64,000 bases of DNA from the NCBI GenBank assembly GCA_001770655.1, contig MERQ01000001.1, positions 32,739 through 96,738 of the forward strand, in the 5' to 3' direction. A program made the translations under genes and the position numbers. This document shows, one piece after another, positions 27,341-51,149 of this stretch. The notes under the pieces are model-generated. The model was not told the DNA's origin, ran no database searches, and saw only the letters and a program-made list of their open reading frames with translations. The number at the start of each line of letters is the position of its first letter. Positions within the stretch are counted from its first letter, which is position 1. The stretch is from Betaproteobacteria bacterium RIFCSPLOWO2_12_FULL_68_20 (GTDB taxonomy: Bacteria; Pseudomonadota; Gammaproteobacteria; Burkholderiales; SG8-39).

Positions 27341-27511
27341 TTTCGGTTTTCTCCGATCTCGTCATTTCCGCGCCTTTTGTCTTTGCGGAAATGACGAGAC
27401 CTTGGTGCCGTCGCATAGCGAAGGCGCTCGCAGAGAAGCGACCGCCCCAAGGTCTCGCGACTTCCGGAAAAGAAAAGGCCCGGAAGTCGCGAGATCGATG
27501 AAAGGCAAACC
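27341..27511 (-). repeat. 171-bp double-hairpin intergenic repeat, copy A (inverted relative to copies B and C)
   Basis: Two perfect 15-bp stems: TCTCGTCATTTCCGC/GCGGAAATGACGAGA (27357-27399) and TCTCGCGACTTCCGG/CCGGAAGTCGCGAGA (27453-27494). An 11-bp outer stem CGAGACCTTGG/CCAAGGTCTCG is also present. It fills the gap between two convergent stop codons. Confidence 0.9.
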
Positions 27512-28483: not shown

Positions 28484-28603
28484 GCGATGGCGAGTGTAAC
28501 AGCCTGAATCAGGGCCCCTTATCGGCAAATCAGAACATCGGCTTTGCGGTGCGCTGCGCGCCTGCCGACAATAACGCGCTGTTCTAACGATATTCGAAAT
28601 CGA

Positions 28604-29821
28604 ATGCCCGGCCTCGTTAAGCCCCACGGCGGCGGCCCGCTCAAGCAGCTGATGCTCGCGGGAGAGGCGCTGCGCGCAGAGCGCGCGCGCGCGAAGACCC
28701 TGCCGCAGGTGCGCGTCAGCTCGCGCGAGAAGGGCGACCTCATCATGCTCGGCATCGGCGGCTTCACGCCGCTCGACGGGTTCATGACCCGCGCCGACTG
28801 GGAGGGCGTGTGCGACGGCTGCCGCACGGCGGCGGGGCTGTTCTGGCCGATCCCGATCACGCTTTCCACCGACACCGGCACCGCGGCCGCCTTCAGGACC
28901 GGAGCCGACATCGCGCTGGTGGACGCCGAAGACGGCGAGACGCTCGCCACCATGACCGTCACCGAGAAGTACGCGATCAACAAGGCGCACGAATGCGCGA
29001 CCGTGTTCCGCACCACCGACGCGACGCATCCGGGCGTGCAGATGGTCATGGCGCAGGGCGAGGTGAACCTCGCGGGTTCGGTCAAGGTGCTCTCCGACGG
29101 CGGCTTCAAGGCGCGCTACGGCGCGCTGTTCATGACCCCCGCCGAGACGCGCGCCGAGTTCGAGCGCCTCGGCTGGTCGCGCGTCGCGGCGTTCCAGACG
29201 CGCAATCCCATGCACCGCTCGCATGAGTACCTCGCCAAAGTGGCGATCGAGACCTGCGACGGCGTGCTGGTGCACTCGCTGCTCGGGAACCTGAAGCCGG
29301 GCGACATTCCCGCCGAGGTGCGCACCAGGGCGATCTCGGTCCTGATCGAGAAATACTTCCTGGCCGCCACGGTGGTCCAGGCGGGCTATCCGCTCGACAT
29401 GCGCTACGCGGGGCCGCGCGAGGCGCTGCTGCACGCGCTGTTTCGCCAGAACTACGGCTGCTCGCACCAGCTCATCGGGCGCGACCACGCGGGGGTGGGC
29501 AGCTACTACGGGCCGTTCGACGCGCACCGGATCTTCGACGAGATCCCGCACGACGCGCTCGAGACGCGGCCGATGAAGATCGACTGGACCTTCTGGTGCT
29601 ACAGGTGCGGCGGAATGGCCTCCGGACGCACCTGCCCGCACGAGGACAAGGACCGGCTGCTCGTCTCGGGCACCAAGCTGCGCAAGTGGCTCTCCGAGGG
29701 AAGCCCGGTGCCGGCCGAATTCTCGCGGCCGGAGGTGCTCGAGATCCTGCGCGAGTACTACGCCGGGCTGGAAGCGCACGAAAAGGTCGAAGTGAAGCTC
29801 GCGGGCCATTCCGCGCGCTAG
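28604..29821 (+). CDS. sat: sulfate adenylyltransferase (ATP sulfurylase)
   Basis: Motifs [13 protein letters not shown] and GRDHAGVG. 405 aa from the ATG at 28604. Confidence 0.9.
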
Positions 29822-31039: not shown

Positions 31040-32890
31040 ATGGCCAGAAGAACCAGGTTCGTCGATTCGGACATCCTCATCGTAGGCGGCGGCTTCGGCG
31101 GCTGCGGCGCCGCCTACGAGTCGCGTTACTGGGGGCGGGATCTCAAGATCGTGCTGGTCGAGAAGGCCAATGTCGAGAGGAGCGGCGCCGTGGCGCAGGG
31201 ACTCTCGGCGATCAACTGCTACATGGGCATGCAGTGGGGCGAGAACCAGCCCGAAGACTTCGTGAAATACGCGCGCGGCGATCTCATGGGCCTCGTGCGG
31301 GAGGACCTCGTCTACGACATCGCCCGGCACGTGGACTCCACGGTGCACAAGTTCGAGGAGTGGGGCCTGCCGATCCTCAAGAACGCGAACGGCCGGTACA
31401 TGAGGGAAGGCAAGTGGCAGATCATGATCCACGGCGAGAGCTACAAGCCGCTCGCCGCCGAGGCGGCGAGGAAGTCCGCCACCGAGGTCTACAACCGGAT
31501 CATGGTGACGCACCTGCTGATGGACCAGAAGCGCCCCAACCGCATCGCGGGCGCCGTCGGCTTCAACGTGCGCAACGGCGATTTCTACGTCTTCAGGGCG
31601 AAGGCGGTGATCGTCGGCGCCGGCGGCGGCTCGCACATCTACCGGCCGAGGGCGGTCGGCGAAGGCATGGGAAGGACCTGGTATGCGCCGTGGAGCACGG
31701 CTTCGGCCTACGGTCTCATCATCCCGACCGGCGCCACGATGACGCAGATGGAGAACAAGATCGTTCTCACCCGCTTCAAGGACGGCTACGGTCCGGTGGG
31801 TGCCTGGTTCCTGCTCCTGAAGGCGGTGGCGACGAACGCCGCCGGGGAGTTCTACGAGAAGGACCGCTATCCCGAGATCAAGGAGCGCGTCGGGCACTAC
31901 GTGGACATCGTGCCGATGCCGACCTGCCTGCGCAATCACGCGATGCTGGAGGAGATCAAGGCCGGCAAGGGCCCGATCTACATGCATACGCAGAAGGTCC
32001 TCGACACCAGGGAGAAGGAGGAGATCGGCTGGGAGGATTTCCTCGACATGACGATCGGCCAGGCGGTCGTCTGGGCGGCGCAGAACATCGATCCCAAGGA
32101 AAAGCCCTCCGAGCTGATTACCTCCGAGCCCTACATCATGGGCTCTCACGCCACCTGTTCCGGTGCCTGGGCAAGCGGGCCGGAGGACTGCGCACCGGCC
32201 GAGTACCAGTGGGGCTACAACCGCATGACGACCGTCGAGGGCCTCTTCGGCGCCGGCGATACGATCGGCGGCTCCGCGCACAAATTCTCCGCCGGCTCCT
32301 TCACGGAAGGTCGGTTGGCTGCGAAAGCGGCCGTCCGATACGTCATGGATCGCAAAGAAGAGTCGCCCGAGGTCGACGACGACCACGTCGAGAGCCTCAA
32401 GCAGGCGGTATTCAAGCCGCTGGAAACCTACCGGGTCGGCAGGAACGAGATCGTCGCCGGGACCGTGGCGCCGGGCTACATCAACCCTCTCCAGGGCCTG
32501 CAGCGGCTCGAGAAGATCATGGACGAGTACGTGGGCGGCGTCGGCATGTTCTACGTCACGAGCGAGAACCTGCTCAACCGCGGCCTGGAGCATCTCGCCA
32601 TGCTGCAGGAGGATTTCGAGAAGATCGGCGCCGAGGACCTGCACCAGCTCCAGCGGGCCTGGGAGCTGCAGCACCGCATCCTGACCGGCGAGTCGGTGGC
32701 GCGGCACACGCTCTACAGGAAGGAAACCAGGTGGCCGGGCTACTACTATCGCGGCGACTATCCGAAGCTCGACGACAACGAGTGGCACTGCTTCACCGGA
32801 TCCGAATACGACCCCAGGTCACGCGAGTGGAAGATGTCGAAGCTTCCCGTTCACCGCATCGTCCCGGGCTTCGAGCTATTGCGAACCTGA
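31040..32890 (+). CDS. aprA: adenylylsulfate reductase alpha subunit
   Basis: FAD fold DILIVGGGFGGCGAA. 616 aa. C-terminal RKETRWPGYYYRGDYPKLDDNEWHCF. Confidence 0.9.
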   Translation: MARRTRFVDSDILIVGGGFGGCGAAYESRYWGRDLKIVLVEKANVERSGAVAQGLSAINCYMGMQWGENQPEDFVKYARGDLMGLVREDLVYDIARHVDSTVHKFEEWGLPILKNANGRYMREGKWQIMIHGESYKPLAAEAARKSATEVYNRIMVTHLLMDQKRPNRIAGAVGFNVRNGDFYVFRAKAVIVGAGGGSHIYRPRAVGEGMGRTWYAPWSTASAYGLIIPTGATMTQMENKIVLTRFKDGYGPVGAWFLLLKAVATNAAGEFYEKDRYPEIKERVGHYVDIVPMPTCLRNHAMLEEIKAGKGPIYMHTQKVLDTREKEEIGWEDFLDMTIGQAVVWAAQNIDPKEKPSELITSEPYIMGSHATCSGAWASGPEDCAPAEYQWGYNRMTTVEGLFGAGDTIGGSAHKFSAGSFTEGRLAAKAAVRYVMDRKEESPEVDDDHVESLKQAVFKPLETYRVGRNEIVAGTVAPGYINPLQGLQRLEKIMDEYVGGVGMFYVTSENLLNRGLEHLAMLQEDFEKIGAEDLHQLQRAWELQHRILTGESVARHTLYRKETRWPGYYYRGDYPKLDDNEWHCFTGSEYDPRSREWKMSKLPVHRIVPGFELLRT

Positions 32891-32911: not shown

Positions 32912-33427
32912 GTGAGAATCTGCATCGTCTCGGATAGCCACGACCGCGCCGATGCGCTCGGTCGCGCCGTGCGCGAAGCGGCCGCGCAGGGTGCTCAGGC
33001 GGTGATCCACTGCGGCGACCTCATCGGCACGCAGACGCTGCGCCCGGCAATGGACGCCGGGCTCCCGATCCACGTCATCCACGGCAACAACCTGGGCGAC
33101 CCCAACTCGCTTTCGCGATGGGCGCACGAGAGCGGCGGCCGGCTGCGCTACCACGGCGCCGACGCCCGCGTCGAGCTCGGCGGACGGCGTATCTTCGTGG
33201 TGCACTACCCGGAGTACGGCTACGGCATGGCCTGCACGGGGGACTGGGATCTCGTGTGCTGCGGGCACTCGCATCACGCGGCCGTCGAGCGCGTGGCGAA
33301 CGTCAAGGGCGGTGCCACCTGGCTCGTCAACCCCGGGACGGTCGCGGGCCTTGCGGCGCCCGCAACCTGGATGCTGGGCGATCTTGCGGCGATGCGCTTC
33401 GAGATCCGCGAGCTCGGCACAGCCTAG
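32912..33427 (+). CDS. YfcE/MJ0936-family metallophosphoesterase
   Basis: MRICIVSDSHDR, HCGDL, GNN, CCGHSHH. The GTG start lies 21 nt after the aprA stop. Confidence 0.75.
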   Translation: MRICIVSDSHDRADALGRAVREAAAQGAQAVIHCGDLIGTQTLRPAMDAGLPIHVIHGNNLGDPNSLSRWAHESGGRLRYHGADARVELGGRRIFVVHYPEYGYGMACTGDWDLVCCGHSHHAAVERVANVKGGATWLVNPGTVAGLAAPATWMLGDLAAMRFEIRELGTA

Positions 33428-33520
33428 AAGCAGCTGATCAAGGACTGACTCTGTCGTCGTCCCCGCGCAAGCGGGGAACCGTTCTCGAGAACCCCGCCCG
33501 GGAAATCGCGCGGGGTTTTT
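33428..33520 (+). repeat. left copy of a ~93-bp direct repeat (aprA-like gene tail + CRISPR-repeat-like hairpin + terminator)
   Basis: AAGCAGCTGATCAAGGACTGA... aligns with 34997-35090 with about 5 mismatches. It starts at the first base after the phosphoesterase TAG. Confidence 0.9.
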
Positions 33521-33525
33521 GTTTT
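33492..33525 (+). terminator. intrinsic terminator inside the left direct repeat
   Basis: GC-rich stem CCCCGCCCG/CGCGCGGGG with loop GGAAAT, followed by TTTTTGTTTT. Confidence 0.6.
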
Positions 33526-33663
33526 GCCGTCGCCGGGCGCTTCAAGCTACCGGAGGGGCGGTTCGCATTGTCGCCTGTCGCCGCAATGCCTAAGATCGCG
33601 GCATGGACCGTTTCCACCGCTACTACACGCTGAAGCTCGACGCGGGGGTCATTAAGCGCCGCG

Positions 33664-33903
33664 GTGCGGAGTGCGCCGCGCGCATTTTCCGAGCCTGAGA
33701 TCCTCGTGGGCAAGCCGGTGGTGAAGGGCACGCGACTGTCGGTGGATCTGATTCTCGACCGTCTCGGTGACGGGTGGACGGCAGATGATCTGTTCAAATC
33801 CTATCCGCGCCTGACGCCCGAGGCGCTGCAAGCGGTATTCGCGTTTGCCGCCGAGGTGTTGAAGGATGAGGACTACGTCGCTCCTGCCAAAGCGGCGGCA
33901 TGA
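33664..33903 (+). CDS. DUF433-family antitoxin-like protein
   Basis: EPEILVGKPVVKGTRLSVDLILDRLGDGWTADDLFKSYPRLTPEALQAVFAFAAE fits the DUF433 pattern (GKP.I.GTR...YP.LT.E.I.AA..YA). The GTG start is uncertain. Confidence 0.6.
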   Translation: MRSAPRAFSEPEILVGKPVVKGTRLSVDLILDRLGDGWTADDLFKSYPRLTPEALQAVFAFAAEVLKDEDYVAPAKAAA

Positions 33904-33968
33904 AGCTGCGGCCGCTCGCCAACGATGTTTTTCCACGCCTTAGCGCCAGTTCGACGGCCGTAGTTTGA
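33900..33968 (+). pseudogene. possible truncated remnant of the DUF433 partner toxin (DUF5615-like)
   Basis: ATGA-coupled 22-codon ORF MKLRPLANDVFPRLSASSTAVV. It only weakly resembles the MKLL.DENFP start of DUF5615 proteins. Confidence 0.25.
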
Positions 33969-34021
33969 GTTCGGCGCGTGCTACGATGGTTTTTTCAGGC
34001 ATGGCAAGCCGTGGAGGCATC

Positions 34022-34345
34022 ATGGATGCGATTTCGGTGGAACAGCTCATCAGGAGTCCGGGCAAGCTGATCGAGGATGCCGAGAACGGTCAGCTTGCGG
34101 TAATCACCAAGGCGGGCCGCCCGCTGTTTCTCGCCGTGCCTTTCGACGCGCGCCTGGCCGGGGAGGATGTGCACGTCGTCGTCGCGGTGCGTCTGTACGA
34201 GAGCGACGCCGTGAGCCTCGGCAGGGGCGCGAGAATCGCGGGGCTCTCGATCAGCGAATTCATCGACCGGCTCGGTGCGCTGCAGATTCCCGTCATTCGC
34301 TATTCCGTCGAGGAGCTCGAGCGGGAGCTCGCCGCGTTTGGCTGA
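34022..34345 (+). CDS. antitoxin-like protein: Phd/YefM-like N-terminus fused to a UPF0175 domain
   Basis: ISVEQLIRSPGKLIEDAENGQLAVITKAGRPLFLAVP is Phd-like. AVRLYESDAVSLGRGARIAGLSISEFIDRLGALQIPVIRYSVEELERELAAF is UPF0175-like. Confidence 0.6.
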   Translation: MDAISVEQLIRSPGKLIEDAENGQLAVITKAGRPLFLAVPFDARLAGEDVHVVVAVRLYESDAVSLGRGARIAGLSISEFIDRLGALQIPVIRYSVEELERELAAFG

Positions 34346-34667
34346 AATCGTCGTCGCGGATGCGGGGCCGCTGATCGCGTTCGGACTGAAACTTTTGCCG
34401 CCCGATGTGGAGCTGGGGGAAGGAGAGGCGGTTGCAATCGCCTTGGCCGCTGGTCGTGGGCACGGCGTCCTGATCGACGAGAAACTCGGCCGCGCGGTGG
34501 CGGAGGGGCTCAGTCTCAAAGTCATCGGAACCGTGGGCGTTCTTCTCATCGCACGCAAGCGCGATCTGATTGCGGCGGTGAAGCCGTTGCTGGAGGACCT
34601 CAAGGCATCCGGGCATCGGCTGTCCGAGGATTTGGTTGTAGAGGCCCTTCGCCGTGCCGGTGAGTAG
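34338..34667 (+). CDS. DUF3368/PIN-like toxin, apparently internally shortened
   Basis: The TTG start overlaps the antitoxin stop. EIVVADAGPLIAF, then GEGEAVAIALAAGRGHGVLIDEKLGRAVAEGLSLKVIGTVGVLLIARKRDLIAAVKPLLEDLKASGHRLSEDLVVEALRRAGE (DUF3368 pattern). At 109 aa it is shorter than I recall for this family. Confidence 0.55.
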   Translation: MAEIVVADAGPLIAFGLKLLPPDVELGEGEAVAIALAAGRGHGVLIDEKLGRAVAEGLSLKVIGTVGVLLIARKRDLIAAVKPLLEDLKASGHRLSEDLVVEALRRAGE

Positions 34668-34693
34668 TTGCTCTGCCAACTTCGTCGAGATTG

Positions 34694-34777
34694 ATGGCAA
34701 ATCTTCTTCCACCCCTCAAACCGATCCCGATTAAGGAACGGCTGTCGGTTCTCTACATCGAGAAGGGCCATCTGGAC
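34694..34777 (+). pseudogene. cas1: cas1 (type I-E) 5' fragment, codons 1-28 only
   Basis: MANLLPPLKPIPIKERLSVLYIEKGHLD compares with the recalled E. coli Cas1 start MTWLPLNPIPLKDRVSMIFLQYGQIDV. The frame then runs directly into a CRISPR repeat. Confidence 0.7.
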
Positions 34778-34778
34778 G

Positions 34779-34860
34779 CCCGCGCGCGCGGGGATGAACC
34801 GCGATCGAGATCGGCGATCTGCCGGCGTGGGAAGTGTTCCCCGCGCGCGGGGATGAACCT
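34779..34860 (+). CRISPR. CRISPR remnant: 5'-truncated repeat (23 nt), one 32-nt spacer, degenerate terminal repeat (27 nt); type I-E repeat class
   Basis: CCCGCGCGCGCGGGGATGAACCG (34779-34801), spacer CGATCGAGATCGGCGATCTGCCGGCGTGGGAA (34802-33), then GTGTTCCCCGCGCGCGGGGATGAACCT (34834-60). The GTGTTCCCCGCG...CGGGGATGAACCG form is the I-E consensus type. Confidence 0.65.
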
Positions 34861-34861
34861 C

Positions 34862-35017
34862 CGCGAGGAAACCCGCTACCCGGGCTTCTACTACCGGATG
34901 GACAAGAACTACATCGACGACGAGAACTGGAAGTGCTTCGTCAACTCGACCTACGACCGCAACACGCACCAGTGGGCGCTGAAGAAGGTGCCGTACAAGC
35001 AGCTGATCAAGGACTGA
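34862..35017 (+). pseudogene. aprA: 3' fragment (about 52 codons) of a second, divergent aprA
   Basis: REETRYPGFYYRMDKNYIDDENWKCFVNSTYDRNTHQWALKKVPYKQLIKD aligns with the intact AprA tail RKETRWPGYYYRGDYPKLDDNEWHCFTGSEYDPRSREWKMSKLPVHRIV. Confidence 0.75.
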
Positions 35018-35090
35018 CCCCGTCGTCGTCCCCGCGCAAGCGGGGAACCGTTCTCGAGAGCCCCGCCCCGGAAATCGCGCGGGGTGTTTT
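34997..35090 (+). repeat. right copy of the ~93-bp direct repeat
   Basis: Aligns with 33428-33520. It includes hairpin GTCGTCCCCGCGCAAGCGGGGAACCG (35025-35050) and a GC stem plus T-run (35061-35090). Confidence 0.9.
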
Positions 35091-35137
35091 CTGGCTACAA
35101 TCCATCGACGCGTTTGTTGTCTCCTGGACGCAGCGAC

Positions 35138-37336
35138 GTGAGGATCGGGAAACCGGAGAATCTGGCAGGCGAGCTGTGGGGCGGGCTGGCAGCGATGCTG
35201 GTCGCGCTGCCCTCGGCGATCGCCTTCGGGGTGACGATCTTCGCGCCGCTCGGCGGCCAGTACGCGGCGCAGGGCGCGGTGGCGGGAATTCTCGGCGTGG
35301 CCGCGCTCGGCATCGTTGCTGCGTCGCTCGGCGGTACCGCGCGCCTGATCACCGCGCCGTGCGCGCCCGCGGTGGCGGTGCTGGTGGCGCTGGCGATCGA
35401 GCAGACGCAGCGCGGCGTCGCGCCGGAATCGATTCTTCTCACGCTCACTCTGGTCGCGCTGCTGTGCGGCCTGCTCCAGTTCGTGTTCGGGGCGATCGGG
35501 CTCGGGCGGCTGATCAAATACATGCCGTATCCGGTCGTGAGCGGCTACCTCAGCGGCGTCGGCTTGATCATCATCGTGAGCCAGATTCCGAGGCTGCTGG
35601 GCGTTCCGAACGACACGCGCCTTCTCGATGCGCTCACCATGCCCGCGCTCTGGCAGTGGCAGGGTGTCGCCGTCGGCGTGGCGACCATCGCCGTGATGGC
35701 GCTGGCGCCGCGGCTCACCAGGGCGGTCCCCGCGGCGATTCTTGCGCTTTTCGCCGGGGTCCTCGCCTATCTTGCTCTCGGCCTGGGCGATCGCCAGCTC
35801 TACCAGGTGGCCGGGAACCCGCTGCTGGTCGGCCCGCTCGGCGGCCCGGGCGGCGGTTTCCTCGACGCGATCGCCTCGCGCTGGAGCGCGATCGGTGCGC
35901 TGAGCCTCGGCGAGCTGCGCTACGTGGTGATACCGGCCCTGACGCTCGCGGTGCTGCTTTCGATCGACACGCTGAAGACCTGCGTGGTGCTCGACGCGCT
36001 CACGCGCTCGCGTCACGACCCCAACCGCGAGCTGATCGGCCAGGGGCTCGCCAATCTCGCCTCGGGGGCGGTCGGCGGCGTTCCGGGCGCCGGAACGATG
36101 GGTGCGACGCTGGTCAACGTCGCGAGCGGGGCGCGCACGCGGCTGGCGGGCGCGCTCGAGGGAATATTCGCGCTGGTCGCGTTCCTCGCGCTCGGCAGCC
36201 TGATCGCCTGGGTGCCGATCGCCGCGCTCGCCGGAATCCTGATCGTGATCGGGGTGCGCATGTTCGACCGCCACAGCCTGCAGCTGCTGCGCTCGCGCTC
36301 GACGGTGCTCGATTTCTTCGTCATTCTGACGGTGGTGGCGGTCGCGCAGTTCAACTTGGTCGCCGCCTCCGGTGTCGGCATCGCGCTCGCAATCGTGCTG
36401 TTCATCCGCGAGCAGGTCGGCGGCTCGGTGGTGCGCCGCAAGGCCTACGGCAATCAGGTGTTCTCCAAGCGGGTGCGGCTGCCCGAGGAGATGGCGATCC
36501 TGGAAAAGCACGGCGGGCGCTGCGCGATTTTCGAGCTGCAGGGAAGCCTGTTTTTCGGCACCGCGGACCAGCTCTTCACCGCGCTCGAGCCCGAGCTGAA
36601 GACGCGCGAATACGTGATCCTCGACATGCGCCGCGTGCAGTCGGTCGACGTGACCGCGGCGCACATGCTGGAGCAGATCGGCGACATGCTCTCCGAGCGC
36701 AAGGCGCTGCTCATCTTCAGCCAGCTGCCGCGGGAGGTGGCGAGCGGCAGGGACATGCGCGACTACTTCGAGCAGGTGGGGCTGACGCGCGCCGAGCAAA
36801 AGGGCAGGACTTTCGGCGAGCTCGACGAGGCGCTCGAGTGGGTCGAGGACCGCATCCTCGAGCAGGAGCGCCTCGAGCGCGCGCTGGAAAAGCCCCTCGA
36901 GCTGCGCGAGCTGGAGGTCTTCAAGGTGCGCAAGGAGGAGACGCTGGCGGCGCTCGAGGCGTGCATGGACAAGCGCTCCTACAAGGCCGGCGAGAGAATC
37001 TTCGCGCGCGGCGAAAGCGGCGACGAGATGTTCCTGATCCGGCGCGGCCAGGTGCGCATCGTGCTGCCGATCGGCGAGGGGCAGACGCACCACCTTGCGA
37101 GCTTCGGGCGCGGCGACTTTTTCGGCGAGATGTCGTTCCTCGATCGCGACGCGCGCTCGGCCGACGCCGTGGCCTTGACTGACATCGACGTCTACGCCTT
37201 GTCGCGCGGCCGCTTCGACAGGATCGCCGAGGAGCACAAGAAACTGGCGCTCGGGCTGCTCGAGGGAATCGCGCGCGTGCTGGCGATCCGCCTGCGGTTC
37301 ACCGACACCGAGCTGCGCGCACTGGAGCGCGCGTGA
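35138..37336 (+). CDS. SulP-family anion permease with C-terminal STAS and cyclic-nucleotide-binding domains
   Basis: About 11 TM helices (LWGGLAAMLVALPSAIAFG...), a STAS-like segment (CAIFELQGSLFFGTADQL) and a cNMP-binding motif (FGEMSFLDRDARSADAVA). A GTG start at 35138 is preferred because 35084 lies inside the upstream terminator. Confidence 0.8.
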   Translation: MRIGKPENLAGELWGGLAAMLVALPSAIAFGVTIFAPLGGQYAAQGAVAGILGVAALGIVAASLGGTARLITAPCAPAVAVLVALAIEQTQRGVAPESILLTLTLVALLCGLLQFVFGAIGLGRLIKYMPYPVVSGYLSGVGLIIIVSQIPRLLGVPNDTRLLDALTMPALWQWQGVAVGVATIAVMALAPRLTRAVPAAILALFAGVLAYLALGLGDRQLYQVAGNPLLVGPLGGPGGGFLDAIASRWSAIGALSLGELRYVVIPALTLAVLLSIDTLKTCVVLDALTRSRHDPNRELIGQGLANLASGAVGGVPGAGTMGATLVNVASGARTRLAGALEGIFALVAFLALGSLIAWVPIAALAGILIVIGVRMFDRHSLQLLRSRSTVLDFFVILTVVAVAQFNLVAASGVGIALAIVLFIREQVGGSVVRRKAYGNQVFSKRVRLPEEMAILEKHGGRCAIFELQGSLFFGTADQLFTALEPELKTREYVILDMRRVQSVDVTAAHMLEQIGDMLSERKALLIFSQLPREVASGRDMRDYFEQVGLTRAEQKGRTFGELDEALEWVEDRILEQERLERALEKPLELRELEVFKVRKEETLAALEACMDKRSYKAGERIFARGESGDEMFLIRRGQVRIVLPIGEGQTHHLASFGRGDFFGEMSFLDRDARSADAVALTDIDVYALSRGRFDRIAEEHKKLALGLLEGIARVLAIRLRFTDTELRALERA

Positions 37337-40293: not shown

Positions 40294-40465
40294 GGTTCTT
40301 TCGCCTTTCATCGATCTCGCGACTTCCGGGCCTTTTCTTTTCCGGAAGTCGCGAGACATCGGGGCGGTCGCATTTCTGCGGACGCCTTCGCTATGCCGAG
40401 GCACCAATGTCTCGTCATTTCCGCAAAAACAAAAGGCGCGGAAATGACGAGATCGTGGAAACCCC
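40294..40465 (+). repeat. 171-bp double-hairpin intergenic repeat, copy B
   Basis: Roughly 9 in 10 positions are identical to the reverse complement of copy A by eye, with the same two 15-bp stems. It lies between convergent stops at 40282 and 40492. Confidence 0.9.
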
Positions 40466-40491
40466 AAAAAACCCAACGACACCGAAAACCG

Positions 40492-50581: not shown

Positions 50582-50753
50582 GGTTTTCGCTTTTCTACGA
50601 TCTCGCGATTTCCCGCGCCTCTTGCCTTTGCGGGAAATCGCGAGACATTGGTGCGATCGCGTTTGGCAAACGCCTCAGCTATGCGACGGCCTCAATGTCT
50701 CGTCATTTCCGCAAAAGAAAAGACGCGGAAATGACGAGATCGGATAAAAGCGC
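50582..50753 (+). repeat. 171-bp double-hairpin intergenic repeat, copy C (divergent, with compensatory stem changes)
   Basis: TCTCGCGATTTCCCGC/GCGGGAAATCGCGAGA and TCTCGTCATTTCCGC/GCGGAAATGACGAGA. It starts at the base after the lptG stop and ends 6 nt before the convergent RDD-gene stop. Confidence 0.9.
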
Positions 50754-50759
50754 AATAAC

Positions 50760-51149
50760 CTACACCATCACCAGCCGCGTGCCGGCAAGCCGATCGTGCA
50801 GGAACATCCGCTCGCGATCGAACAAGGCCCACACGAGCGAGATCCCTGTGGGCACGAGGATCGCCGCGAGCGCGAGGCGCACGAGCGCCGTGCGCGGCGT
50901 CGCGCCCTGCAGCCGGATGCGCCAGGCCTTCATGGCGAGCGTCTGCCCGCCGCGCAGCCAGCACCACAGGAAATAGGCGGCAAACGCCGCGGCGATGAAC
51001 AGCTGCAGCGCGTGGCGAATCCACCCGAGCGTGGCGTCGCGCCCGCCGCTCGCGAAAAAGAATACCCAGGCGGCGAAGAAGGCGACCGCGGCGAGCAGTA
51101 GCGCCTCGTAGAGCATGCTTGCAAGGCGCCGCGCCAGGCCGGGCGTCAC
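50760..51149 (-). CDS. RDD family membrane protein
   Basis: RRLASMLYEALLLAAVAFFAAWVFFF ... GQTLAMKAWRIRL. The GTG start overlaps the upstream stop. Confidence 0.65.
   Translation of the reverse strand: MTPGLARRLASMLYEALLLAAVAFFAAWVFFFASGGRDATLGWIRHALQLFIAAAFAAYFLWCWLRGGQTLAMKAWRIRLQGATPRTALVRLALAAILVPTGISLVWALFDRERMFLHDRLAGTRLVMV

Follow-up and report, generated by a model that had tools for sequence, protein, structure and literature searches.

Positions 33428-35090 of the 64,000-nt stretch of DNA analysed here (hereafter, the window) are occupied by a real but ordinary genomic scar, in which approximately 1.5 kb of broken TA and CRISPR fragments lies between two 96-base repeats, nearly identical to each other, that derive from the end of an aprA gene since lost (Table 1). 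We propose that the patch is the non-functional evolutionary remainder of a second, lineage II apr locus, which would have been entered at its aprA 3' end by an island in a Campbell-type event and later reduced by deletions; in our estimate, this history stands about an even chance of being the right one. The main value of the finding lies in the annotation and the evolutionary history of the locus: an uncultured aquifer betaproteobacterium (Burkholderiales; nearest named relatives Casimicrobiaceae MAGs) appears to have lost an SRB-like lineage II APS reductase by deletion and to have kept the aprM-linked one. The patch shows no sign of mobility today.

Table 1 Features of the aprA-tail patch and its flanks (positions in the window).
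Feature	Position	Strand	Evidence and content
YfcE-type metallophosphoesterase gene (PE)	32912..33427	+	Pfam Metallophos_2, E 2e-28; NCBIfam yfcE; length and stop position as in relatives
Left repeat unit	33425..33520	+	PE stop TAG; last 6 lineage II aprA codons and stop (33428-33448); hairpin 1 (33460-33477); terminator-like hairpin 2 with T-run (33486-33529)
DUF433 ORF, start unconvincing	33664..33903	+	Pfam PF04255, E 1.7e-18; gene callers begin at 33706; GC3 0.71
22-codon ORF, supposed stub of a DUF433 partner	33900..33968	+	Overlaps DUF433 stop (ATGA); putative
UPF0175 antitoxin-like gene, PDC-S70 component	34022..34345	+	Pfam PF03683, E 1.4e-13; PADLOC PDC-S70, E 3e-9
DUF3368 PIN-like toxin remnant	34338..34667	+	Pfam PF11848; PADLOC PDC-S70
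cas1e N-terminal stub, ~28 codons	34691..34775	+	Joined to CRISPR repeat R1; adjoins type I-E repeats
CRISPR remnant	34773..34859	+	R1 5'-truncated, end 34801; 32-nt spacer 34802-34833; R2 34834-34859
Lineage II aprA 3' fragment, 52 codons and stop	34860..35017	+	TIGR02061 match; GC3 0.96
Right repeat unit	34994..35089	+	TAC; last 6 aprA codons and stop; hairpin 1 (35029-35046); hairpin 2 (35061-35084); interrupted T-run
SulP-STAS-cNMP transporter gene, downstream flank	35150..37336	+	Pfam; gene calls

Extent, content and copy number of the direct repeats

The repeat pair, first put at ~93 bp with about five mismatches, spans 96 nt, of which 90 are identical; the six mismatches fall at positions 33427, 33450, 33452, 33491, 33500 and 33517 of the left unit, and the longest uninterrupted match between the two units is 38 nt. 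When the window was compared with itself by BLAST, the pair was recovered at E 2.3e-35, which rules out chance similarity as its source. The sequence-only reading had also described the content of the copies correctly: both units carry AAGCAGCTGATCAAGGACTGA, i.e. the 21 coding nucleotides of aprA that are translated as K-Q-L-I-K-D-stop, then hairpin 1 (TCCCCGC-GCAA-GCGGGGA) and, 3' of it, another GC stem that leads into a T-run. The non-coding parts of the two units are ~94% alike. The left unit is predicted to fold at -45.5 kcal/mol (z = -2.3) with a stem of 12-15 bp and then TTTTTGTTTT; a simple terminator consensus scan gave no call there. For the right unit, in which the T-run is interrupted, the predicted fold is weaker (z = -0.7). 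At present, the left unit probably does no more than terminate the sat-aprMBA-PE transcript. The right unit is situated upstream of sulP.

A search of the 64-kb window for further copies found the unit exactly twice: three sub-patterns of it, allowing up to three mismatches, each occurred two times (chance expectation 0). The other loci that were retrieved (1.59 Mb in total) contained no copy, and in the JGI metagenomes the full unit was found at this locus alone. These counts bear on the idea that we are dealing with a generic terminator or REP-like element, present in many copies, whose duplication was unrelated to insertion. The idea draws on hairpin 1, since 10 unrelated contigs from metagenomes also have its exact 21-nt core and one of these (L026) shares 45 nt at 87% identity; however, each copy also includes 21 nt of aprA coding sequence, the same in both, and together with the copy numbers in the sequences searched this makes a generic element highly doubtful. 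As the core occurred in the JGI metagenomes only in the population studied here or in those unrelated contexts, no donor emerged from the search.

Lineage of the aprA tail

That the right copy is the natural end of a 52-codon aprA fragment was confirmed by the aprA model TIGR02061, in which the fragment corresponds to positions 565-616 of 616 (E 1.4e-17), the extreme C-terminus; its score of 63 bits is far under the model cut-off of 642. At the nucleotide level, the fragment is 87% identical to locus L118 and 83.6% identical to locus L011. The encoded peptide shares 80-90% identity with the lineage II-type AprA tails of sat-aprB-aprA loci (L011, L118 and P0001), compared with 43-55% for the aprM-linked AprA proteins of the window and its relatives (43% for the window's own AprA). 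The AprB of locus L011 has the KGxDK loop, a feature described for lineage II (PMC2211403). Judged by these sequence comparisons, the fragment corresponds exactly to the C-terminus of a lineage II, SRB-like AprA and is unrelated to the aprM-linked lineage I aprA that belongs to an intact aprM-aprB-aprA set upstream in the window. The same identities support one element of the alternative offered from the outset, the former presence of a second apr locus, and they place this locus in a different lineage from the first.

Of this second aprA, only the tails survive: 52 codons in the right copy and 7 in the left one, so that the right copy holds 45 aprA codons beyond those of the left. There is no full-length gene, FAD-binding domain or partner aprB, and no qmo genes were found among the called genes of the neighbourhood examined (22912-43427). 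In locus L118, the nearest outside homologue (87% in the coding part), similarity to the unit ends entirely at the stop codon. A search with the 51-aa tail protein returned short proteins only; many of the matches were 56 aa long, being ORFs called from a conserved Met at -56 of truncated or frameshifted genes (e.g. L011), and for this reason their lengths say nothing about deletion endpoints.

The locus resembles those sulfur oxidisers in which Apr lineages I and II coexist (e.g. Thiobacillus denitrificans), in that an intact aprM-aprB-aprA is accompanied by a remnant grouping with aprM-less sat-aprB-aprA, but differs from them in that lineage II is reduced to the two tails and the neighbourhood examined has no qmo. 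It is also similar to the aprBA deletion remnants L012-L019 and P0015, where most of aprB and aprA was lost internally and the last 57-61 aprA codons were left 3' of sat or of an aprB stub; those remnants, however, have a single tail, with neither a duplication nor a foreign insert. Marker-gene surveys may be affected by such remnants, as short aprA-positive reads or amplicons derived from them could be miscounted as functional aprA.

TA and CRISPR debris between the repeats

Most of what the sequence-only reading had placed between the repeats was recovered: DUF433, UPF0175 and DUF3368 by Pfam, the CRISPR remnant by its matches to type I-E arrays and, weakly, the cas1 stub, which aligned with residues 5-26 of E. 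coli Cas1 at E ~0.03. The supposed stub of a DUF433 partner did not hold up to the same degree, the 22-codon ORF having no Pfam match. The UPF0175/DUF3368 pair corresponds to the PADLOC candidate system PDC-S70. Its antitoxin-like protein matches, but the toxin is not full length: it aligns only to positions 72-159 of the 161-position PDC-S70 profile, and the N-terminal part is gone.

In the CRISPR part, R1 is 5'-truncated onto cas1 codon 28, while R2 has a 2-nt deletion in its loop and lacks the last base, the point at which the aprA fragment starts. Both repeats are damaged yet fit the I-E consensus, with a 32-nt spacer between them. They match the type I-E arrays located beside cas7e-cas2e in Ideonella, where the repeat is GTGTTCCCCGCGAGCGCGGGGATGAACCG, and a plasmid search with the patch gave matches to I-E CRISPR arrays only. 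No exact match to the spacer was found in viral contigs. Other cas genes (cas3, Cascade, cas2) were absent from the neighbourhood examined (22912-43427), the cas1e-like stub being the only one. In having two I-E-consensus repeats, a 32-nt spacer and the start of cas1e alongside, this part is like degenerate or orphan type I-E arrays; it differs from them in the damage to the two repeats, the interruption of cas1 at codon 28 and the lack of any other cas gene, and because of these features it is a remnant rather than a functional orphan array. The patch indicates that CRISPR-Cas and TA islands can shrink to a few hundred bases within a core sulfur-oxidation neighbourhood.

No integrase, transposase or recombinase domain was found in any ORF on either strand of 33428-35090, and no integrase or transposase among the called genes of 22912-43427, just as had been stated from the letters and the ORF list. 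Rfam gave nothing at gathering thresholds in the window and nothing convincing at E values up to 10 in 33300-35300.

The lower GC content noticed within the patch was borne out by GC and codon-usage profiles. With a GC fraction of 0.632, the patch belongs to the lowest 1% of same-sized windows, and its genes have a GC3 of 0.63-0.82 versus 0.88-0.96 in the neighbouring genes; the GC3 of the aprA tail (0.96) is host-like. The insert therefore looks foreign, whereas the aprA tail looks native.

Each of the 16 contigs from the same population shows the full structure, and SNPs within the patch number 0-1. Because these contigs were assembled independently, the structure is not an assembly artefact. 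An apparent extra divergence of the patch in scaffold L002 was explained by 22 consecutive Ns.

Junctions and related loci

The left aprA tail begins directly after the PE stop codon TAG (33425-33427), as had been claimed, and comparison with relatives adds that this stop codon is native, being found at the same position in them. In 5 of 5 relatives' loci, PE is followed by aprM-aprB-aprA and heads its own aprMBA operon. Since the PE stop is native and aprMBA follows PE in all these relatives, DNA has been lost immediately 3' of PE. The aprA genes located 3' of PE in the relatives end with ...VYHIID and were not the source of the left tail.

Together with the left edge of the left unit, the joins between cas1 and R1 and between the CRISPR repeat and aprA are read, from their sequence context, as probable deletion junctions. 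The left edge is a join to the PE stop, and the junction from which the right aprA fragment starts is located within a CRISPR repeat. This suggests that the present 96-nt length of the repeats was set by later deletions and is not that of an att core. These joins also bear on annotation: the 107-aa 'hypothetical protein' reported by gene callers (34694-35017) is a chimera of the cas1 stub, CRISPR repeats and the aprA tail.

An empty site was sought by three routes. The best 80 sulP loci in species-representative genomes were at most 71% identical, and none had apr, PE or patch genes upstream. All five relatives' PE loci showed PE followed by aprMBA and never PE, unit and sulP in succession. 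Through the lineage I AprA, a relative with 91% identity (L122) was reached, which has aprMBA without sat or PE. Neither an arrangement of the second aprA, a single unit and sulP nor one of PE, a single unit and sulP was found in the relatives examined (best 80 sulP loci, at most 71% identical). Direct observation covers the duplicated ends, what each fragment is, the foreign make-up of the insert and where the junctions lie. As these searches yielded neither an empty site nor an integrase nor a further copy, the recombination mechanism, and with it the order of events, is what we infer.

Proposed history of the locus

According to the history that we propose, the ancestor would have carried a second APS reductase locus of lineage II (SRB-like, aprM-less), whose aprA ended with ...KKVPYKQLIKD and was followed by a two-hairpin terminator just 5' of sulP. 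A foreign segment with a type I-E CRISPR-Cas system and small TA or defence modules (DUF433; UPF0175/DUF3368, i.e. PDC-S70) may then have entered the aprA 3' end by a Campbell-type single crossover. The crossover could have been homologous, with a circularised fragment bearing its own aprA 3' end, or site-specific, like that of e14 at icd; either route would yield the aprA 3' end and the terminator in two direct copies flanking the insert. One later deletion would have taken out everything from the PE stop as far as codon -7 in the left aprA copy, and another the DNA from the CRISPR array to codon -52 of the right copy. Others presumably took cas2, the leader and most repeats (at the cas1-R1 join), as well as the cas genes upstream and the N-terminal portion of DUF3368. 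Deletions leaving an aprA tail are also seen in unrelated lineages (L012-L019, P0015), and e14/icd is a known precedent for the duplication. Against this history it must be said that at least four separate events are needed and that no relative with a single-unit arrangement, no integrase remnant and no donor were found among the searches made.

In E. coli K-12, integration of e14 at icd leaves a displaced 3' pseudo-copy of 163 bp (PMC6379469). The likeness to our locus consists in a gene 3' end (~160 nt of coding sequence) that occurs twice, in direct orientation, around foreign DNA, with one copy being a non-functional fragment (PMC6379469). In the present locus, however, the body of the target gene is gone, the copy on the side of the gene body is trimmed to 7 codons, neither integrase nor excisionase is present, and the insert consists of TA and CRISPR debris instead of a prophage.

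These differences weigh on a strict version of the option listed first in the sequence-only reading, in which the aprA 3' end was the target of an island with its own integrase, attL and attR are represented by the 96-nt repeats, and the island subsequently decayed. One part of it stood, as direct repeats of a gene 3' end do bracket compositionally foreign defence and TA cargo, with e14 at icd to show that such an outcome occurs. The remainder fared worse: neither a recombinase nor a fragment of one exists on either strand of 33428-35090, the native stop codon of the unrelated PE gene takes the place of the aprA body upstream of the would-be attL, the right copy has 45 aprA codons that the left one lacks, and on the element side the junction falls within a CRISPR repeat, where it resembles a deletion endpoint more than an att edge. 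We consider an att duplication in this strict sense quite improbable. To our knowledge, no element that targets aprA has been described.

The edges of the patch can also be accommodated if two paralogous lineage II aprBA loci, derived from a segmental duplication, once resided a few kb apart with a defence island between them and were both deleted down to their 3' ends. Each edge would then be a deletion junction, as seems to be the case, both tails would be expected to share the same host-like sequence (they are 94% alike including the UTR), and more than one apr locus does occur in some sulfur oxidisers, e.g. Thiobacillus denitrificans. Nevertheless, tandem lineage II loci were seen in no relative examined, and the island would have had to land exactly at the terminator of the first copy. 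Such a history is not more parsimonious than Campbell insertion, where a single step gives both the duplication and the insert, and we regard it as rather unlikely.

Two further explanations derive the left unit from the right one or from its transcript. In the first, the left unit is a patch templated by the right unit 1.5 kb away, through gene conversion, template switching or filler synthesis, during the repair of a break that deleted the genes 3' of PE. The left unit is indeed short and its junctions are blunt on both sides, TA being the only possible microhomology at the left one. The units differ by 6%, however, whereas the patch as a whole shows no variation in the population, so any copying would be old; moreover, on its right side the copy stops where the terminator stops, a coincidence not expected from repair synthesis. 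We judge this explanation very unlikely. In the second, the left unit would have been templated, by retro-copying or otherwise, from the transcript of the second aprA, at its 3' end: a short cDNA primed at the mRNA 3' end would have been captured at a chromosomal break. A cDNA shape is suggested by the 3' boundary of the unit, which lies in the terminator T-run, where the mRNA is expected to end, and by its arbitrary 5' boundary 21 nt into the ORF. If true, this would mean that DNA derived from mRNA had been inserted in a bacterium; we find it extremely improbable.

In a related speculation, repeat-like hairpins might have guided the joins; hairpin 1 (GTCGTCCCCGCGCAAGCGGGGAACCG) resembles the local type I-E CRISPR repeat. 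Hairpin 1 was itself considered as a true CRISPR repeat and rejected: its 3' handle is 3 nt short, its distance of 191 nt from the R2 start does not fit the register of the array, and in both units it accompanies the aprA stop codon.

The flanking repeats and the aprA tail

The DNA behind PE, a YfcE-type metallophosphoesterase gene, is bracketed by a 96-nt direct repeat whose copies are identical at 90/96 positions (mismatches mapped) and matched each other at E 2.3e-35 in a self-BLAST of the window. Three sub-patterns of this unit occur exactly twice each in the 64 kb at ≤3 mismatches, the chance expectation being none. As the sequence-only reading had described, both copies carry an aprA-like 3' end (AAG CAG CTG ATC AAG GAC TGA), a hairpin of 18 nt whose loop is GCAA, and a further GC stem with a T-run behind it. 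As RNA, the left copy forms two well-defined hairpins (-45.5 kcal/mol, z = -2.3). In the right copy, a point change affects hairpin 2 and the T-run is broken up, and this copy's fold does not outdo shuffled sequence. A simple terminator scan called 0/2 terminators in the copies. Transcription termination is a probable present function, and no other is indicated. Sixteen independent contigs (ENA, JGI, NCBI) assemble the same structure with 0-1 SNPs in the interval, so that it is genuine and the population is fixed for it; the sole apparent divergence, in locus L002, was explained by a run of 22 Ns. Hairpin 1 (GTCGTCCCCGCGCAAGCGGGGAACCG) is similar to the CRISPR repeat of type I-E that lies 165 nt upstream (GTGTTCCCCGCGCGCGGGGATGAACC), probably through convergence of GC hairpins.

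Features of the locus and its surroundings
Feature	Coordinates	Remark
~170-nt repeat, copy 1	27341-27509	- strand
~170-nt repeat, copy 2	40299-40468	+ strand
~170-nt repeat, copy 3	50585-50760	both orientations match
Indicated recombination breakpoint	about 28544-28620	start of sat
sat, aprM, aprB, aprA	aprA 31040-32890	upstream of PE and both unit copies
PE	32912-33427	directly after aprA
Unit, left / right copy	33425-33520 / 34994-35089
Hairpin 1, left / right	33456-33481 / 35025-35050
DUF433 ORF		between unit copies; start not convincing
UPF0175/DUF3368 pair		between unit copies; PADLOC candidate system PDC-S70
Chimeric 107-aa ORF	34694-35017
Surviving spacer	34802-34833	CGATCGAGATCGGCGATCTGCCGGCGTGGGAA
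Divergence inside sulP	36478-36650
Inverted segment in L002	36543-36643	101 nt

The 52 codons entering the right copy match positions 565-616 of the 616 in the aprA model TIGR02061 (E 1.4e-17). They are 80-90% identical to the tails of sat-aprB-aprA loci without aprM (L011, L118, P0001), but only 43-55% identical to aprM-linked tails, the window's own included. The intact AprA belongs to the aprM-linked group, and its unusual C-terminus, ...PGFELLRT, is kept in relatives at 88-92% identity. A KGxDK loop in AprB is a feature of the SRB-related 'lineage II' (Meyer and Kuever, PMC2211403); it is present in the AprB of L011, and the window's AprB is without it. By the tail identities and this loop, the fragment is thus what remains of a second aprA, of lineage II. 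Of the earlier proposal that a second apr locus was replaced by recombination, the second locus is thus borne out by the TIGR02061 match and the tails. The closest outside homologue of the lineage II gene, in L118, shows 87% nucleotide identity, and all similarity is gone at the stop codon. The 107-aa 'hypothetical protein' called by gene finders in public assemblies is chimeric: it joins the cas1 stub and the aprA tail through a translation of the CRISPR repeats and their spacer, and the protein collection groups it with true AprA C-terminal fragments.

Content and junctions of the patch

The 1.34-kb patch between the copies has a GC content of 63.2% (vs 68.7% for the window), which places it in the bottom 1% of windows of its size. 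In its ORFs, GC3 is 0.63-0.82; it is 0.88-0.96 in neighbouring genes and 0.96 in the aprA fragment; these values bear out the lower-GC stretch noticed earlier. By these values, the toxin-antitoxin and CRISPR material has the look of imported or long-decayed DNA, and the aprA tail, given its GC3, that of resident DNA. All three parts are remnants, each failing the full-length criteria of its own family. Of the 161 positions of its profile, the DUF3368 member retains only 72-159; a stretch of about 28 codons weakly resembles the N-terminus of Cas1e (residues 5-26 of E. coli Cas1, E about 0.03); and two damaged type I-E repeats (R1, R2) enclose a 32-nt spacer. Their sequences match those of genuine I-E arrays, one of which adjoins cas7e-cas5e-cas6e-cas1e-cas2e on an Ideonella plasmid; the collection of viral contigs contained nothing that matched the sole surviving spacer exactly. 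The putative stub of a DUF433 partner, suspected earlier, had no Pfam hit.

The left copy starts directly 3' of the TAG of PE. This stop codon is native, since the relatives' proteins finish at the corresponding residue and the likeness to them goes no further. cas1 codon 28 joins directly to about position 6 of R1, and R2, without its last base, joins directly to aprA codon -52. All three joins read as deletion-type junctions; the left limit of the 96-nt repeat is thus set by a deletion endpoint, and its right end is the terminator T-run. In five relatives' loci, PE (83-89% identical) leads an operon of the order PE-aprM-aprB-aprA, so DNA was lost directly downstream of PE in the window's lineage. 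Because AprA has the C-terminus ...VYHIID in these relatives and shares only 72% identity with that of the window, the intact operon and tails are not simply the relatives' operon rearranged. The PE-headed order was seen in 5/5 Burkholderiales/Casimicrobiaceae loci (L036, L037, L119, L120, L121, P0027 contig), and the window differs in placing PE after aprA. To our knowledge, a functional link between YfcE-type phosphoesterases and APS reductase is undescribed.

Proposed history of the locus

The locus is a decayed insertion scar, of a kind already known. We give about an even chance to a Campbell-type insertion, a single crossover at the 3' end of an aprA of lineage II that was already resident, followed by deletions; it is the simplest history that yields repeat and insert together. 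The incoming DNA would have carried either its own aprA 3' end, so that one homologous crossover sufficed, or a sequence that imitated this end as an att site, used site-specifically as by e14 at icd (PMC6379469). Later deletions would have taken away the aprA body, part of the toxin and, from the CRISPR-Cas locus, cas2, the leader, most of the repeats and the upstream cas genes.

The e14/icd duplication is similar in topology. Unlike it, the locus shows no recombinase domain in any ORF of 33428-35090 or in the called genes of 22912-43427, and the gene body expected at attL is missing; on these two points it falls outside that class. A strictly integrase-mediated insertion is unlikely, and of the att-type duplication first suggested, the repeats and the foreign-looking insert stand. 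No empty site was found among the sulP, PE and AprA relatives compared, and no donor in the JGI metagenome and fetched-locus searches. Among species-representative genomes, none of the 80 best sulP relatives (≤71% identical) had apr upstream; in a relative whose AprA is 91% identical, aprMBA is present but sat and PE are not.

An island lying between two paralogous lineage II aprBA loci is somewhat less unlikely than the integrase version, and a templated repair copy is improbable. A dispersed repeat element is very unlikely: the unit has two copies in the 64-kb window and none in 1.59 Mb of other fetched loci, which held no further likeness to unit or patch genes. In JGI metagenomes, the 21-nt core of hairpin 1 occurred only in two contigs of this population, at the right copy, and in ten unrelated contexts where the hairpin stands alone. 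Deletion of the lineage II locus is unremarkable, since other lineages have independently lost aprBA down to the tail (L012-L019, P0015). Downstream of sat, L012-L019 have a decayed ~46-codon aprB stub fused to the last 59 aprA codons (about 9806-10174 in L012); in P0015, 25 aa of AprB are fused in frame to 61 aa of AprA.

Wider neighbourhood

From 28618 on, one strain variant (L004) agrees with the window at 99% identity, with SNPs clustered in 28.6-29.2 kb; upstream of sat its genes are entirely different, DUF6866 and a TusA-like gene standing where the window has ChrB, which indicates a putative recombination breakpoint at the start of sat. Inside sulP, L002, L008, L030 and L003 end or diverge with a common SNP cluster, and in L002 a segment is inverted and sulP is called shorter; the cause is either variation between strains or faulty assembly at a repeat within the gene. 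A ~170-nt repeat family of three copies (77-91% alike), with a long hairpin at each end and terminal inverted repeats (CGATCTCGCGA...TCGCGAGATCG), looks MITE-like. The copies are intergenic (M48 peptidase-ChrB, PK-PPK2), and two inverted ones flank the whole ChrB-sat-apr-PE-patch-sulP-TusA-PK block.
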